From Candidatus Omnitrophota bacterium (GTDB taxonomy: Bacteria; Omnitrophota; Gorgyraeia; Zapsychrales; JANLHA01), in the NCBI GenBank assembly GCA_020632555.1, contig JACKFI010000003.1, positions 4,351 to 68,350 on the forward strand: a stretch of DNA of 64,000 nt, in the 5' to 3' direction. Shown here one piece after another: positions 34,418-45,736 of the stretch. The number at the start of each line of letters is the position of its first letter. The stretch's first letter is position 1. The position numbers and the translations under genes are program-made. Under the pieces are notes generated by a model. The model was not told where the DNA came from and searched no databases. It saw only the letters and a list, made by a program, of their open reading frames with translations.

Positions 34418-36127
34418 ATGGCAGAAACTTTAAAAACCAAGATTCTTGCGCGTCTGCTGGACTCTTTGAAGTTAAAAAAAGAGGATTTGGATGCCGCTTT
34501 GAAATTGCAAAAAGAAAAAGGGATTCCGCTTGAGCGGGTTTTGATGGAGCAGGGGCTGATTAATGAGCAGGATTTATTATTGCTCTTGGTCAAGGAATTG
34601 CATATTCCTTTTATTAACTTGAAGAAGTATAAGATTGATCTGGAATTGAAAACAGTGATAACGGAAAAAGTTGCTCGTCAGTACCATATCGTTCCGCTTT
34701 CGCAAATGGAAGACACTTTGACCATTGCTCTTTCGGATCCGTTGAATATTTTTGCTTTAGATGACATCAAAAACATTACAGGCAAGAATATTGACGTGGT
34801 GATGAGTACCAATTCAGAGATTTTGCACGCAATAGATCATTATTATGGATCCAAGGCGACCGCTTCAGTTTCAGATATTAGTAAAAGTATTGAGTTTGAA
34901 CAGTTTGAAATTGTTTCTGAAAAAGAAGGGGCTCAGCAGGATGATGTGGATGCGCAAGAGGGTGAACAAGCGCCGATTATTCGTTTGGTGAATTTGATTA
35001 TACAAGAATCGCTCAAACAACGCGCATCGGATATTCATATTGAACCGATGGCTGATCTGGTGCGAGTTCGTTATCGCGTCGATGGTGTTTTGTTGGAGGC
35101 GATGAATTTTCCCAAGAGCAATCAGAATTCTGTTTTGGTTCGCTTAAAGATTATGGCGCGGCTGGATATTACCGCGACGCGCACACCGCAAGACGGCCGG
35201 TTTAAAATGAATATTGGAGCCAAGGAAGTGGATTTTCGTGTTTCGGTTTTGCCGACGATTTTTGGGCAAAAGGTTGTTATGCGTATTTTAGACCGAAAGA
35301 ATTTATCCATTGGTTTGAATGGTTTAGGTTTTTCTGAGCATTCGATTAAGATTTTGCAAGAGGGAATTCATAGTCCGTTTGGCATGATTCTGGTGACCGG
35401 CCCGACCGGTAGCGGGAAGTCAACGACGCTGTATTCCATTATTAATGAGCTGAATAGTGTTGAAAGAAATATTATCACCGTTGAAGATCCTGTGGAATAT
35501 TTGATTGAGGGATTGACTCAAATTCATGTGCGTTCTGATATTGGTTTGACTTTTGCGTCTGGCTTGCGCGCTATTTTACGGCAAAGCCCGGATATTGTTA
35601 TGGTCGGTGAGATTCGTGACGTTGAGACAGCGGATATTTCGATTAAAGCGGCTTTGACCGGCCAGATGGTTTTTTCGACCTTGCATACCAATGACGCGGC
35701 GGGGGCTTTGACACGTTTGGTCGATATGGGGGTTGAGCCATTTTTGGTGGCTTCCAGTATTGTTTTGGTTTGCGCTCAGCGTTTGTGCCGAAGAATTTGT
35801 ACGCATTGCAAACATCAGGTGGAGGCGCCTTCCTGGATTGCCAAAGGCATGCAAGAAAAGATCCCGCCGGGGACAATCTTTTACGAGGGCAAAGGGTGTG
35901 ATTATTGCCGTATGACGGGTTATCGCGGACGGATAGGTATTACCGAAGTATTTCAAGTTGACGATATGGTTCGCGAGATGTTAATTCTGGGTAAATCGTC
36001 TGACGAAATTAAAGAATATGCTCATAAAACCAAAGGGATGAGACTTTTGTGGGATGAAATTATGGATAAATTTATCAGTGGTGAAACGACAGTGCAGGAA
36101 GTTTTACGTTTAACAATGGATGAATAG
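34418..36127 (+). CDS. pilB: Type IV pilus / T2SS assembly ATPase, paralog 2
   Basis: Same architecture as paralog 1: 'GPTGSGKSTT', 'VMVGEIRD', 'MVFSTLHT', 'CTHC...CDYC'. Confidence 0.9.
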   Translation: MAETLKTKILARLLDSLKLKKEDLDAALKLQKEKGIPLERVLMEQGLINEQDLLLLLVKELHIPFINLKKYKIDLELKTVITEKVARQYHIVPLSQMEDTLTIALSDPLNIFALDDIKNITGKNIDVVMSTNSEILHAIDHYYGSKATASVSDISKSIEFEQFEIVSEKEGAQQDDVDAQEGEQAPIIRLVNLIIQESLKQRASDIHIEPMADLVRVRYRVDGVLLEAMNFPKSNQNSVLVRLKIMARLDITATRTPQDGRFKMNIGAKEVDFRVSVLPTIFGQKVVMRILDRKNLSIGLNGLGFSEHSIKILQEGIHSPFGMILVTGPTGSGKSTTLYSIINELNSVERNIITVEDPVEYLIEGLTQIHVRSDIGLTFASGLRAILRQSPDIVMVGEIRDVETADISIKAALTGQMVFSTLHTNDAAGALTRLVDMGVEPFLVASSIVLVCAQRLCRRICTHCKHQVEAPSWIAKGMQEKIPPGTIFYEGKGCDYCRMTGYRGRIGITEVFQVDDMVREMLILGKSSDEIKEYAHKTKGMRLLWDEIMDKFISGETTVQEVLRLTMDE

Positions 36128-36228: not shown

Positions 36229-37437
36229 TTGATGCCAACGTTTAAATATGTATCGAAAGACTGGGATTCAAAAAGCGTTGTCGGAAAAATTGTTGCCGAT
36301 GATGAGGGCAAGGTCATTGAGGAATTGCGCAAACGCAATTTGACCATTATTTCGATTGATTTGGTTAAAGAGTCAGCGGCTCGTAAGGCAGCTTTTGGCG
36401 GAGCGAAAGTTAAAGAAGATGATTTGGTTATTTTTAGCCGGCAACTTTCCACTATGATTGATTCTGGAATTCCAATTTTACAGGCTTTGGATGCTTTGCA
36501 AGAACAAATCACGCATCCTGGTTTTAAAGGTGTGGTTGTTGCTGTGCGGGATGATATTCAAATGGGGGGCAGTCTTTCGGCATCCTTTGCCAAGCATCCG
36601 CGCGCTTTTGACACCTTGTTTGTTAACATGGTCAAAGTGGGGGAAACCGGCGGTGTTTTGAGCCAGATTCTGGATCGAATTGCCGGTTATTTGGAAAAAT
36701 CTTTGCGGCTTAAACGTAAAGTTCAGTCAGCGATGATTTATCCGGCCGTTGTTGTGACCATGGCCGCTTTGATTACTATTCTGCTTTTGGTTAAAGTTGT
36801 CCCGACGTTTGCGGGAATTTACACTTCATTTAATAAAGAATTACCGGGTATGACACAAGCTTTGATTAATGTGAGTAATTTGTTGCAGCATAATCTGCTG
36901 GGCTTGATTGCGGGCGTTGTGATTTTTGGGTTTTTGCTGAATCGAGCTTATCGGACAGATATGGGGCGGCTTTATATCGACAGTTTTGTTTTGAAAATGC
37001 CCATTTTTGGCGATATTATCCGCAAAGTTGCTATCGCGCGTTTTAGCCGCACCTTATCGATTCTTTTGCAAACGGGTGTTCCCATTCTTGAATCATTTGA
37101 TATTGTTGGAAAATCCAGCGGGAATCGTGTGATTGAAGGCGTTATTGAAACAGTTAAAGCCAATGTTGCTGAAGGAGAAAGCATTGCCGCTCCGCTGCTT
37201 AAAAGTGGTGTTTTTCCGCCGATGGTCACGCGCATGATTTCTATTGGCGAGAAATCCGGCCAACTTGAAAAAATGCTGACTAAGATTGCTGATTTTTATG
37301 ATGATCAGGTTGATACGGCTGTTAATGGGCTGACCAGCATTATTGAGCCTTTGATTATTGGGGTTTTGGGTATTGTGGTTGGATTCATTGTTATCGCTCT
37401 GTTTATGCCGATTATTAGCATTACGACAATTATTTAA
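36229..37437 (+). CDS. pilC: Type IV pilus platform protein PilC/GspF
   Basis: Two GspF repeats ('FSRQLSTMIDSGIPILQAL', 'FSRTLSILLQTGVPILESF') and 3 TM segments. Confidence 0.9.
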   Translation: MMPTFKYVSKDWDSKSVVGKIVADDEGKVIEELRKRNLTIISIDLVKESAARKAAFGGAKVKEDDLVIFSRQLSTMIDSGIPILQALDALQEQITHPGFKGVVVAVRDDIQMGGSLSASFAKHPRAFDTLFVNMVKVGETGGVLSQILDRIAGYLEKSLRLKRKVQSAMIYPAVVVTMAALITILLLVKVVPTFAGIYTSFNKELPGMTQALINVSNLLQHNLLGLIAGVVIFGFLLNRAYRTDMGRLYIDSFVLKMPIFGDIIRKVAIARFSRTLSILLQTGVPILESFDIVGKSSGNRVIEGVIETVKANVAEGESIAAPLLKSGVFPPMVTRMISIGEKSGQLEKMLTKIADFYDDQVDTAVNGLTSIIEPLIIGVLGIVVGFIVIALFMPIISITTII

Positions 37438-39161: not shown

Positions 39162-40193
39162 ATGTTTGCTATGGGTGTGTATCTTAAGAATCTGCATATT
39201 AAAGCTTCTTCAAGCCGGTTGGTTGAAGAAATTCTCCAAGAAAATGTTAAGGACAATTATCGGGTTCTCCCTGCCAAGGGAGGATGGATTACTGTATGTC
39301 TTAACGTAGATAAGGTTGAAGAGAAAGAGTTTGTTGAAATTAACAAGATATTATCGAAAAAACTTGGGGTCGCAATTTGGGGCTTTGATATTTATGACAG
39401 CGATATTTTGGTATTTCATTTATTTGATGGAGGAAATTTAATTGCAAAGTTTAATTCGAATCCTGATTATTTTGGCGTTGCGACTAGAATAAAGCGTAAA
39501 TACTTTTCTTGTAGTGCTGATCAAATAAAAAGATATTGCCAGCGAGGTACTTTAACAAAGCAACTACAAAGAATTCTTAAACAAAAAACTATTCGGGATT
39601 TTGCGGATGAGACTGAAATTGATATTAATAATTATGTTTTTGAAGAACAAAGACTCGAGGAGTTGCTGAGCTTGATTGGGATCGATCGCAAGTGGGCTTA
39701 TACAGATTATAGGGATCGAGATGATAGGAAGAACGCAGAGAATAGTTGTGTCGACATGGATTCTTTTACGGAGCGAGCGAATCAAGAAAATAAAACCGAT
39801 AAGGGTAAATTTGCTTATGCTGTTTCATGGGGTGAAATTACAAAGGTTAAGAAATATCTTTCGCGGGGCTTGAATCCTAATTTTAAGGATATTCTTGGAC
39901 TAACACCGCTGATGATTGCAGCTGAAAATTCTCGAATTGAGACCATGAAAGTTTTGATCGAGAATGGTGCCAATGTTAATACTGTCGATGATAGTGGAAA
40001 TACGGCTTTGCATCTTGCCATTGAATGCGAAGATGAAGATGTTATTAGGTTATTGCTTGAGGTGGGTGCTGATGTTTATAAAAAAAATCGTGCTGGTGCA
40101 ACACCCGACAGTATGATTAGGAGCTCAGAATCTTTGGATGTTTTATTTTCTGATTTATTAAAGAGTTTAAAGAAAAAATCCAGAAAACGTTAG
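39162..40193 (+). CDS. Ankyrin-repeat protein with an uncharacterised N-terminal domain
   Basis: C-terminal ANK units 'GLTPLMIAAENSRIETMKVLIENGANVN', 'SGNTALHLAIECEDEDVIRLLLEVGADV', 'AGATPD'. The N-terminal roughly 220 aa carry no recognised motif and no signal peptide. Confidence 0.8.
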   Translation: MFAMGVYLKNLHIKASSSRLVEEILQENVKDNYRVLPAKGGWITVCLNVDKVEEKEFVEINKILSKKLGVAIWGFDIYDSDILVFHLFDGGNLIAKFNSNPDYFGVATRIKRKYFSCSADQIKRYCQRGTLTKQLQRILKQKTIRDFADETEIDINNYVFEEQRLEELLSLIGIDRKWAYTDYRDRDDRKNAENSCVDMDSFTERANQENKTDKGKFAYAVSWGEITKVKKYLSRGLNPNFKDILGLTPLMIAAENSRIETMKVLIENGANVNTVDDSGNTALHLAIECEDEDVIRLLLEVGADVYKKNRAGATPDSMIRSSESLDVLFSDLLKSLKKKSRKR

Positions 40194-40236
40194 CTATTGA
40201 TAAAAAGGATAGATTCTTATAAATAAATATTTTCTT

Positions 40237-40301
40237 CTTTGTCGTCGGCTAATGCAGCTTTGCAAGAAAAACTTTTAGTCCTGCAAATGCGGCAAGATAA
40301 A
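40237..40301. repeat. Direct repeat copy 2 (non-coding remnant of the coiled-coil gene 3' end)
   Basis: 63 of 65 nt are identical to 39024-39088. It keeps the same reading frame and runs to a TGA that lies inside the TTGACA -35 box at 40328. Confidence 0.9.
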
Positions 40302-40327
40302 GCGCCGGTCACTCAGGCCATGTCCCC

Positions 40328-40356
40328 TTGACATTGTCATAAACAGGTTTTATACT
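40328..40356 (+). promoter_or_regulatory. Sigma70-type promoter driving the riboswitch-pilA leader
   Basis: TTGACA (40328-40333), 17-nt spacer, TATACT (40351-40356). Confidence 0.65.
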
Positions 40357-40382
40357 TTCAGTGCAGCAAAGTTAAAAGATGA

Positions 40383-40470
40383 AAAAGGCAAACCACTCGC
40401 AAGGGTGGGACGCAAAGCTAAAGGGTCCCGTCGCCGGAAGGTGAAGTTTGAGGGACAGCCAGTTACCATC
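40383..40470 (+). promoter_or_regulatory. c-di-GMP-I (GEMM-I) riboswitch aptamer
   Basis: 'GGCAAACCACUCGCAAGGGUGGGACGCAAAGCU' aligns almost base for base with the V. cholerae Vc2 aptamer segment 'GGCAAACCAUUCGAAAGAGUGGGACGCAAAGCC' (recalled from the literature). The first hairpin has a GNRA (GCAA) tetraloop. A second hairpin GUCCC...GGGAC carries an internal GGAA loop, and the 3' 'AGUUACC' matches Vc2 'GGUUACC'. Confidence 0.8.
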
Positions 40471-40490
40471 AAAAGGTCAAAAGCTTATGT

Positions 40491-40525
40491 ATCCCATTCT
40501 TGGTTGGTCAGGAATGGGATTTTTT
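40491..40525 (+). terminator. Intrinsic terminator (riboswitch expression platform)
   Basis: atcccattc (40491-40499) pairs with gaatgggat (40512-40520), followed by TTTTT at 40521-40525. Confidence 0.75.
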
Positions 40526-40776
40526 ATTGAGATATATAAAGACAAATAATCGCAAGAATGGCGAATAAAAAAATTGCAAGTAAGATTGACAGCGAAAGGA
40601 GGTATGTTACGATTAGTACCATAAGTTAACTTAACGATAAAGGAACATCGAACAAGCGCTCTGCACGGGAAATAAATTTTGTAAACCGTTATCATTCATT
40701 ATCTTCTACGGTTTATTTTCTGGGTAAAGGGCTTGAAAAAGACGGTGCCGACCTTTATCCAGAAAGGAGGAAGAAA

Positions 40777-41175
40777 ATGAAAATGAAATTAAATCGCAAG
40801 GGGTTCACACTCGTTGAAATTATGATCGTTGTCGCGATCATTGCCCTCTTAGCAGCCATCGCAATTCCGAACTTGTTAAAAGCCAAGATTTCAGCGAACG
40901 ATGCCTTAGCAAAAAGCACGTTGCGTTCGCTCTCAACAGCTTCTGAGACGTTTGCAACGGCTAACACCGGTAACTATCCGACTGATATTACGTCGTTGAC
41001 AGGAGCCACCCCGCCGTACATTCAGGTGCCATATTGTGATCAACAAAACTCTGGTTTCAGCTTTACCTGTACCATGGGAACAGGGTCTTACACGTATGTG
41101 GCCACGCCTGTAACGGTTGGGACTTCAGGGACAACGACATGGACGATTGCTACGGGTGGTGTTTTAACTCCGTAA
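40777..41175 (+). CDS. pilA: Major type IV pilin
   Basis: AGGAGG RBS. Class III signal 'MKMKLNRKG/FTLVEIMIVVAIIALLAAIAIPN' (prepilin cleavage/methylation motif). Small T/G-rich C-terminal domain with one Cys pair. Confidence 0.9.
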   Translation: MKMKLNRKGFTLVEIMIVVAIIALLAAIAIPNLLKAKISANDALAKSTLRSLSTASETFATANTGNYPTDITSLTGATPPYIQVPYCDQQNSGFSFTCTMGTGSYTYVATPVTVGTSGTTTWTIATGGVLTP

Positions 41176-41214: not shown

Positions 41215-41243
41215 GGGGGGCCAATCAAATGGCCCCCTTTTTT
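41215..41243 (+). terminator. Intrinsic terminator/attenuator after pilA
   Basis: gggggcc (41216-41222) pairs with ggccccc (41231-41237), followed by TTTTTT at 41238-41243. Confidence 0.75.
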
Positions 41244-44665: not shown

Positions 44666-45736
44666 TTGATTATGGCGCAATCCTCTGATCCTTTTTCTTC
44701 TTTGATAAAAAAATTTAATCCCGCCAAGGTTGTCCGTTCATCTGTTGGTCTTGATATTGGTGTTGGTTCTTGCCGCATGGTAGAAGTTGTCAATCGTGCT
44801 GATGGGTTTGAGCTTGTTCGTTGGGCGATTGAGCCGATTGTTGCCGGAGATGTTGTTAAATCCATCCGTACGGTTATGTCGAAAGTGAGCCAGCCAAATC
44901 TTTCGCCTGTGACAGCTTTAACTGGAAAAGGAACATTGATTCGTTTTGTGGATATGCCCAAGATGTCTTTGGCGGACCTGAAACGTTCTTTTTCTTTTGA
45001 AGTTGATAAATATTTCCCTTTTCCCAAAGACCAAATCTTCACGGATTGCTATATTCTTGACCCGCAAGGCATTGATAATAAATTGCCTGTCTTGGTCGCT
45101 GCCGCAAAAAAAGAGCTTGTTCATGAACGAATCAAATTGATGACCAGCGCCGGTTTGCAGGCTGATTTTATAACCTTGGGTTCAATTTCTATTGCTAATG
45201 TTTTTAATGTTTTGGGAAGTCCTCCGATATCTAAAGACAGTTCTGGGCAAGGCAAGAGGGCGATTGCGGTTTTGGATATTGGCGAGTTGGTGAGTAATCT
45301 TACGATTTTGGTTGATAATCGTCCCCGCTTTAATCGGGATGTTTTCCTCGGCGGGAGGGATTTTACCAAAAGTATTAGTAATGCTTTGCGCGTGACGGTT
45401 GAAGAAGCAGAGAAAATTAAGCAGGAACCTAAAGAACGCGCGCAAGACGTCGCGGTAAGCATTGAGTCCGTGGCTTTTGATTTGGTTTCAGAGTTGCGAT
45501 TGTCTTTTGATTATTTTATGACGGAAGCGAATATTCCTATTAGTCAGCTTTTTTTAACTGGCGGCACGACGGCTATGGAGCATTTGCGGCAAAGTCTTTC
45601 CAAACAACTTGAAGTTGATGCTGTGTGTTGGAACCCGATCCGTCTTTTAAAATTAAATGCGGAAGTTGTTGAGGCAGATATCAATGCCAAGGCGGGTTAT
45701 TTGGGTTCAGCTTTGGGTTTGGCATTATATTGTTGA
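44666..45736 (+). CDS. pilM: Type IV pilus assembly protein PilM (actin-like)
   Basis: 'VGLDIGVGSCRMVEV', 'VLDIGELVSNLTIL', 'LFLTGGTTAMEHL' (ASKHA phosphate motifs). Followed by pilNOPQ. Confidence 0.85.
   Translation: MIMAQSSDPFSSLIKKFNPAKVVRSSVGLDIGVGSCRMVEVVNRADGFELVRWAIEPIVAGDVVKSIRTVMSKVSQPNLSPVTALTGKGTLIRFVDMPKMSLADLKRSFSFEVDKYFPFPKDQIFTDCYILDPQGIDNKLPVLVAAAKKELVHERIKLMTSAGLQADFITLGSISIANVFNVLGSPPISKDSSGQGKRAIAVLDIGELVSNLTILVDNRPRFNRDVFLGGRDFTKSISNALRVTVEEAEKIKQEPKERAQDVAVSIESVAFDLVSELRLSFDYFMTEANIPISQLFLTGGTTAMEHLRQSLSKQLEVDAVCWNPIRLLKLNAEVVEADINAKAGYLGSALGLALYC

Follow-up and report, generated by a model that had tools for sequence, protein, structure and literature searches.

A predicted class I c-di-GMP riboswitch and transcription attenuator upstream of a major type IV pilin gene in Candidatus Omnitrophota

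Our analysis concerned a 64,000-nucleotide (nt) stretch of DNA from a Candidatus Omnitrophota bacterium (contig JACKFI010000003.1), hereafter the window, and within it the 583-nt intergenic stretch at 40194-40776, flanked by an ankyrin-repeat gene (39162-40193) and a type IV prepilin gene (40777-41175). This intergenic stretch, which is embedded in a type IV pilus cluster, holds a predicted riboswitch for cyclic di-GMP (c-di-GMP) together with a promoter, an intrinsic terminator, a second promoter-like site, and a long 5' untranslated region (UTR). The features on which the argument rests are the following.

40328-40356, plus strand: promoter P1, TTGACA (40328-33), a 17-nt spacer, and TATACT (40351-56), matching 11 of 12 consensus positions.
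40378-40471, plus strand: c-di-GMP-I aptamer, Rfam clan CL00126, with the aptamer end at 40470.
40400-40410, plus strand: putative antiterminator 5' strand CAAGGGUGGGA, composed of three tetraloop bases, the 3' strand of helix P2, and two bulge bases, and common to the aptamer and the antiterminator.
40491-40525, plus strand: predicted intrinsic terminator T1, stem 40491-40503 / 40508-40520, then U5 at 40521-25.
40586-40613, plus strand: second promoter-like site, promoter P2, TTGACA-16-(TG)-TACGAT, sigma-70-like, matching 10 of 12 positions plus the TG.
40683-40770, plus strand: conserved structured 5' UTR of the pilin gene, read from the sequence, with no Rfam family match.
40777-41175, plus strand: type IV major pilin gene, the putative regulated gene, encoding 132 amino acids from the ATG at 40777, with a prepilin N-terminal methylation motif (Pfam N_methyl, 7e-9).

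Scanning the window with cmscan against all 4227 families of Rfam 15 returned a single RNA, at 40378-40471 (+), which matched clan CL00126 over the full length of the model (1-80/80) with 61.2 bits and an E value of 5.4e-12. An earlier sequence-only reading of this locus had assigned the element to the c-di-GMP-I (GEMM-I) class and had proposed the Rfam comparison as a check. The class assignment stood, and the check was positive at the level of the clan and above the gathering score, whereas the top label was not the one expected: the best-scoring family was RF03167, "c-di-GMP-I-GGC" (61.2 bits vs a gathering score of 59), a label that is overruled by the A at position 47, as discussed below. 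A further family of clan CL00126 also reached at least its own gathering score in the window and was masked by clan competition. For the leader, Rfam also returned weak matches (HPnc0260, PyrR, and others; E 0.3-10), which lay far below gathering and were dismissed as chance.

The anatomy of the aptamer followed the known fold closely. The core GGCAAACCACUCGCAAGGGUGGGACGCAAAGCU was located at 40387-40419. Helix P1 was very short, with only 4 base pairs (bp) (GAUG/CAUC, 40378-81 / 40467-70), and it enclosed a 2-bp helix (40388-89 / 40412-13), helix P2 (40393-40408; CCACUC-GCAA-GGGUGG, with arms 40393-98 / 40403-08 and the GCAA loop at 40399-402), and helix P3 (40416-40464), with a bulged AAA (40420-22) close to the P3 base. 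Helices P2 and P3 correspond to the GNRA-capped first hairpin and the second hairpin of the sequence-only reading, both of which were indeed present. The GCAA loop together with these bulged As agrees with the receptor-less GEMM subtype reported in 2007, in which a GYRA tetraloop occurs with bulged As instead of the receptor (PMC1950547), with the docking of the two elements being predicted here. In class I aptamers, G20 makes a Hoogsteen contact to G-alpha of the ligand, C92 pairs with G-beta in Watson-Crick fashion, and A47 contacts the ligand by intercalating (PMC5888326, PMC11218506). All three positions were canonical in the window (G20 = G40387, A47 = A40414, C92 = C40466) and invariant across the 11 orthologs that were parsed. 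Since G20, A47, and C92 are all canonical, c-di-GMP would be the expected ligand, and the RNA is, as judged from its sequence, a canonical class I c-di-GMP riboswitch (c-di-GMP-I / GEMM-I aptamer). An identity as GEMM-Ib, the subclass for 3',3'-cyclic GMP-AMP (cGAMP), was ruled out: that subclass is defined by an A at the G20-equivalent position (A14 in Gs1761; PMC5888326), and this diagnostic A20 was absent, with the invariant G40387 in its place.

Comparison with related loci was carried out on a set of leaders assembled from the contexts of ten pilin homologs and from metagenome matches whose downstream open reading frame (ORF) was a pilin. This set comprised 12 distinct leaders (the window, L001, L003, L101, L007, L130, L131, L132, L135, L136, L137, and L139). 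A search with PilB returned four contigs of metagenome-assembled genomes at 86-87% identity, three of which carried the same aptamer at the syntenic place. The order promoter P1, aptamer, T1, promoter P2, long UTR, and pilin gene was kept in all 12 Omnitrophota loci. The pilin gene itself had 3759 homologs at E <= 1e-10, with source names of PilA or Omnitrophota prepilin. Pilin paralogs without the aptamer were also found (L128, the second copy in L134, and L140); some close paralogs (72-82% identical) lack the riboswitch, and others form tandem pairs in which a single copy has it (L128/L129, L134, L139, L140/L141), which means that each genome has one particular pilin locus marked by the riboswitch. 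L001, L002, and L004, which have a PilB 86-87% identical to that of the window and share its leader, are titled 'uncultured Planctomycetales', and L003 and the pilin homologs are Candidatus Omnitrophota, which probably reflects a taxonomic mislabel in third-party annotation (TPA) assemblies. In one leader, L130, an insertion of ~55 nt that forms two hairpins separates helix P2 from the A45-C46 strand, where the other leaders have a bulge of 3 nt; the affected stretch lies ~480-370 nt before the pilin ATG (position 1501), and the remaining aptamer was intact.

The aptamer structure was well maintained in this set. In a gap-free alignment of 10 orthologs, built as a synthetic concatenation in which distal P3 and the linker were replaced by placeholders and from which L130 and L136 were omitted, 98% of 200 cells were paired, compared with 23-47% in slid controls. 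Six pairs showed compensatory change, including C22-G45 to U-A in 5 of the 10 sequences and the fourth P2 pair from C-G to U-A, along with pairs in helices P1 and P3. The leader of L101 was assigned directly to RF01051, with 57.1 bits against a cut-off of 35.

The RF03167 label raised the question of whether the aptamer belongs to the c-di-GMP-I-GGC variant, which would imply an altered or unknown ligand. We consider this highly improbable, even though RF03167 was the best-scoring family and its score exceeded gathering. The meaning of "GGC" was deduced by comparing the consensus lines of the two families: RF03167 reads ACGCGAAgC, with a G at the equivalent of position 47, whereas the window and all orthologs carry an A (ACGCAAAGC), as does the RF01051 consensus (ACGC-A-AAgC). 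Membership was rejected on this basis, the defining G47 being A40414 here despite the score of 61.2 vs 59. When metagenome contigs were scanned with a pattern for the common core that allowed A or G at position 47, 148 matching aptamers were found, 146 with A and 2 with G, and 13 of these loci were then scored with Rfam. On RF03167, the scores of many A47 aptamers (62-70 bits) spanned those of the two true G47 sequences (64.6 and 68.3), and ortholog L101 went to RF01051 and not to RF03167. The label comes from the model and not from the RNA, and the model does not discriminate A47 from G47. Loci L008, L015, L017, L049, L126, and others are examples of canonical A47 aptamers for which RF03167 beats RF01051 in clan competition. 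This constitutes an annotation trap: clan competition puts many canonical A47 aptamers in the "GGC" family, and automated pipelines may inflate the count of a variant class whose specificity is supposed to be altered.

Among the same metagenome contigs, many carried two GEMM-I aptamers in tandem, ~100-210 nt apart, and one contig carried three (tandem loci L015, L024, L030, L035, L040, L056, L057, L061, L062, L066, L072, and others). In several of these contigs, helix P1 was lengthened by its flanks and followed by a U-run, resembling a terminator built from the whole aptamer.

Upstream of the aptamer, the promoter TTGACA-17-TATACT named in the sequence-only reading was recovered as promoter P1, and its hexamers were kept in 12/12 leaders (TTGACA-17/18-TATACT) with a variable spacer sequence. 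The consensus match alone was not significant, with 4 such sites found vs 3.6 expected. Transcription would start near 40363, and the distance from the end of the -10 element to helix P1 was 21 nt, somewhat less than the ~25 nt given earlier, although the aptamer does follow the promoter as described. Downstream, terminator T1 was likewise present at 40491-40520 with U5 at 40521-40525, but its stem was longer than the 9 bp originally counted, comprising 13 pairs by scan and 12 by RNAfold (dG -17.0). A hairpin with a U-tract was found at the same place in 12/12 leaders. The aptamer and T1 do not overlap; they are separated by a 20-nt linker, and the full-length minimum-free-energy fold holds both. 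Across the orthologs, the linker measured 9-45 nt and was A-rich and unconserved in sequence and length.

The connection between the aptamer and T1 lies in a long-range complementarity. The pairing that had been pointed out between GGGUGGGA (40403-40410) and UCCCAUUC (40492-40499) proved to be real, to be kept in orthologs, and to extend to 11 bp, formed by CAAGGGUGGGA (40400-40410) with UCCCAUUCUUG (40492-40502). The 5' arm of T1 (40492-40502) thus doubles as the 3' strand of the predicted antiterminator, and its motif CCYAUUYU was kept in 11/12 leaders. The duplex had an energy of -17.0 kcal/mol, compared with -9.9 +/- 2.1 for shuffled upstream sequence, and only 0.2% of shuffles were as good. 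The duplex was better than 95-100% of shuffled probes in 12/12 leaders, and in 10/12 orthologs no other part of the leader matched the T1 5' half as well as the 3' strand of helix P2. In L136, the T1 stem is unrelated in sequence, yet its arm and loop (UCCAUCUUACG) are complementary to CGUAAG(G)AUGG (-14.6 kcal/mol, p 0.003). In the alignment, 93% of the cells of the antiterminator helix were paired vs 40-66% when the helix was slid, and two compensatory pairs fell at positions that are unpaired in the aptamer, namely the third base of the tetraloop and the middle base of the bulge. When the transcript was cut off immediately ahead of the T1 3' arm, the minimum-free-energy fold was the antiterminator in the window, by 8.1 kcal/mol, as well as in L001, L003, and L101, and the helix P2 and antiterminator states lay within ~1 kcal/mol, or the antiterminator was favored, in 9/12 orthologs. 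Other candidate partners were rejected: the P3 3' strand and the J1/2 strand were best only in single orthologs (L007 and the minimum-free-energy fold of L137, respectively), and an antiterminator encoded in the linker, as ON logic would call for, was not compatible with linkers of 9-45 nt that are A-rich and unconserved.

This arrangement suggests that the element is probably a transcription attenuator of the OFF type, in which c-di-GMP gives termination at ~40525, acting on the upstream of two tandem pilin promoters. We infer the direction, which the sequence-only reading had left undecided, because all conserved competitors of T1 are strands of the aptamer that would be tied up on ligand binding, with no ligand-released antiterminator in the linker, and because the architecture is that of Cd1, a validated OFF switch in which the aptamer and the terminator can form together, in competition with an antiterminator (PMC9262584). 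Under this model, transcription would start at promoter P1 near 40363, and the aptamer (40378-40471) would fold first. Without c-di-GMP, the emerging T1 5' arm (40492-40502) would invade helix P2 and pair with 40400-40410, and the resulting 11-bp antiterminator, enclosing P3, would block T1 and let RNA polymerase continue in the direction of the pilin gene. Once c-di-GMP is bound at G20/A47/C92, helix P2 would be locked in the folded aptamer, leaving the T1 5' arm free for its own 3' arm; T1 would then form and transcription would stop at U40521-25. Promoter P2 (40586-40613) would supply pilin transcription independent of the riboswitch.

Several observations weigh against this model. The antiterminator must break a pre-formed local P2 hairpin (-6 to -7.9 kcal/mol alone), which is kinetically less obvious than the usual exchange of P1 strands, and in 3/12 orthologs (L139, L132, L007) the helix P2 state was favored by 2.5-12.9 kcal/mol. 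In L007, moreover, the best partner of the T1 arm was the P3 3' strand. Full-length minimum-free-energy folds always include T1, and the switch must therefore be kinetic. The shuffle control for the antiterminator helix gave only 5/500, and the pair counts rest on the synthetic concatenation described above. The orthologs are related, and conservation of the T1 arm does not amount to 12 independent observations. As for the aptamer class, the RF01051 score of the window itself was masked by clan competition, also on rescans of 40200-40900 and of the trimmed 40385-40467, with RF03167 on top each time. Finally, the one well-studied pilin riboswitch, the class II element of C. difficile pilA1, is an ON switch (PMC6366702).

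The last point belongs to a broader case for the opposite direction, in which the same aptamer and ligand would form an ON switch, with c-di-GMP preventing T1 and raising pilin transcription. ON logic would suit the usual idea of c-di-GMP promoting adhesion and pili; the riboswitches of C. difficile pilA1 (class II) and Geobacter pilM (GEMM-Ib), both located before pilus genes, are ON; and many GEMM terminators give ON logic. The gene neighborhood has also been considered in this context, since a PilB-type ATPase encoded nearby has an N-terminal domain of the MshEN family, a type that can be activated by c-di-GMP. Members of the pilus cluster, which also encodes minor pilins and a PilX_N/DUF4900 protein, are as follows.

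34418-36127: PilB-type ATPase with an MshEN domain, pilus cluster member (Pfam MshEN N-terminal domain, 5.6e-22).
36229-37437: PilC, pilus cluster member.
44666-45736: PilM, pilus cluster member.

On inspection by eye, however, the MshEN N-terminus of PilB did not clearly keep the arginines and glycines that belong to the c-di-GMP-binding motif, and the domain was not used as evidence. Within the 64 kb window, no convincing motif matches to GGDEF, EAL, or HD-GYP genes were found. In ON-type GEMM switches, the 5' arm of the terminator overlaps the aptamer, as in pilM (PMC9262584) and likewise in many GEMM instances (PMC1950547), whereas T1 starts 20 nt past helix P1 here and 9-45 nt past it in the orthologs. 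The linker holds no conserved sequence fit to be a ligand-released antiterminator, and the conserved competitors of T1 are all aptamer strands that would be sequestered by ligand binding. ON switching thus appears unlikely, and the OFF attenuator remains our preferred reading.

A separate issue is how much of pilin transcription the attenuator would control. The sequence-only reading had placed the element in the pilA leader; it does lie upstream of the pilin gene, but a conserved promoter-like site (40586-40613) intervenes between T1 and the pilin ATG (40777), and the element is not simply part of the pilin leader. Both the -35 and the -10 of this promoter P2 were kept in 12/12 leaders, at 1-124 nt from T1, and in six leaders promoter P2 began as little as 1-24 nt past the T1 U-tract. 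The activity of promoter P2 is predicted from its sequence. If it is active, the riboswitch would gate only transcripts from promoter P1, given that promoter P2 lies downstream of T1, and promoter P2 would be an independent input. In most leaders, the spacer of promoter P2 holds a Shine-Dalgarno-like AAAGGAGGT.

Downstream of promoter P2, each leader carried a conserved 5' UTR with its own hairpins (115-240 nt across leaders). In the window, a hairpin at 40683-89 / 40708-14, followed by a U-rich run, resembles a second, weaker terminator, and a 14-bp hairpin (40717-30 / 40752-65) has a 3' strand that ends exactly at the Shine-Dalgarno sequence GGAGG (40766-70). The region 40683-40770 also includes a pyrimidine-rich stretch, UUAUCAUUCAUUAUCUUC.

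The conservation of promoter P2 in all 12 orthologs, its proximity to the T1 U-tract in half of them, and the long conserved 5' UTR that gives the pilin mRNA its own leader 3' of promoter P2 could point to a different role for the upstream unit. In this alternative, promoter P1, the aptamer, and T1 would not mainly form a cis attenuator; the unit would instead release a ~160-nt c-di-GMP-binding RNA that acts in trans or as a sponge, or would be an insulator under ligand control, which adjusts the amount of read-through that passes from promoter P1 and from upstream pilB/pilC across promoter P2 and interferes with it. There was no evidence for a trans target, and among the leaders examined the unit was always directly upstream of a same-strand pilin gene, which is a signature of cis regulation; the activity of promoter P2, moreover, is predicted from a consensus scan only. 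We regard this alternative as distinctly unlikely. A more general and still doubtful proposal is that the Omnitrophota-wide layout of promoter, aptamer, terminator, and second promoter makes the riboswitch an insulator or auxiliary input and not the gate of the main pilin promoter, with promoter P1 read-through adding to or interfering with promoter P2, or with a ~160-nt c-di-GMP-bound RNA being released, and with switching, unusually, by strand invasion of the tetraloop-capped helix P2 and not by P1-strand exchange. If true, such an insulator or auxiliary input would connect the display of pili with c-di-GMP in bacteria that are ultra-small and possibly host-attached.

Returning to the attenuator with inferred OFF logic, its components can be set against systems already described. 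It resembles Vibrio cholerae Vc2, the type example of RF01051, in its three-helix junction, its GGCAAACC...GGGACGCAAAGC core, the G20/A47/C92 contacts, the GNRA-capped first hairpin, and the 5' regulatory position before a motility or surface gene. Unlike Vc2 and RF01051, it has a GCAA loop and bulged As with no 11-nt receptor (the known receptor-less subtype), a P1 of only 4 bp, an Omnitrophota host, and the RF03167 label. A literature search for the Vc2 sequence string gave nothing. In its expression platform, the element is closest to the Cd1 OFF switch (flgB, Clostridioides difficile; PMC9262584), which is also transcriptional, with a non-overlapping aptamer and terminator and a competing long-range antiterminator. 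The Cd1 antiterminator, however, acts by unfolding the binding pocket in its 3' portion (C87/G86), whereas the competitor here would be the 3' strand of the tetraloop-capped helix P2, with a direction that is predicted from the sequence. Like C. difficile Cdi-2-4 (class II, pilA1) and Geobacter pilM (GEMM-Ib, cGAMP), the element combines a cyclic-dinucleotide riboswitch with an intrinsic terminator before type IV pilus genes; those two are ON switches of class II or of the A20 cGAMP subclass, whereas this is a class I aptamer with G20 and probable OFF logic. Bc1 (Bacillus cereus group; PMC11218506) similarly has a complex region of >200 nt from the aptamer to the start codon with more than one terminator-like hairpin, but its two terminators are 28 bp apart with no internal promoter reported, whereas a conserved promoter-like site separates T1 from the rest of the leader here. 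With c-di-GMP-I-GGC (RF03167), the element shares the fold and the best covariance-model score, but not the defining G47, which is an A.

GEMM elements were linked to pilus genes already in the first description of the motif (PMC1950547), and terminator-containing transcriptional switches of the c-di-GMP-I class, as well as expression platforms that are long and complex, are known too; knowledge of the riboswitch class itself is unchanged by our finding. No riboswitch study in Candidatus Omnitrophota, an uncultured phylum, was found in the searchable literature. What is new is modest: the host phylum, the conserved two-promoter layout, a putative antiterminator that uses helix P2, and the wrong top Rfam label for this and many other aptamers. 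The layout and the P2-invading antiterminator are small, checkable additions to the expression platforms of GEMM-I, and the locus offers a concrete and testable way in which c-di-GMP would regulate the major type IV pilin of Candidatus Omnitrophota, through an element kept in at least 12 distinct loci.

One further feature of the locus lies beyond the pilin gene.

41215-41238, plus strand: strong terminator 3' of the pilin gene, with 9 pairs by scan, 7 of them G-C, followed by a T-run.

This hairpin is G+C-rich, has T-runs on both strands, and extends over the start listed for the following ORF (41213). It looks like a pilin-specific attenuator that would separate the major pilin from the minor pilins.

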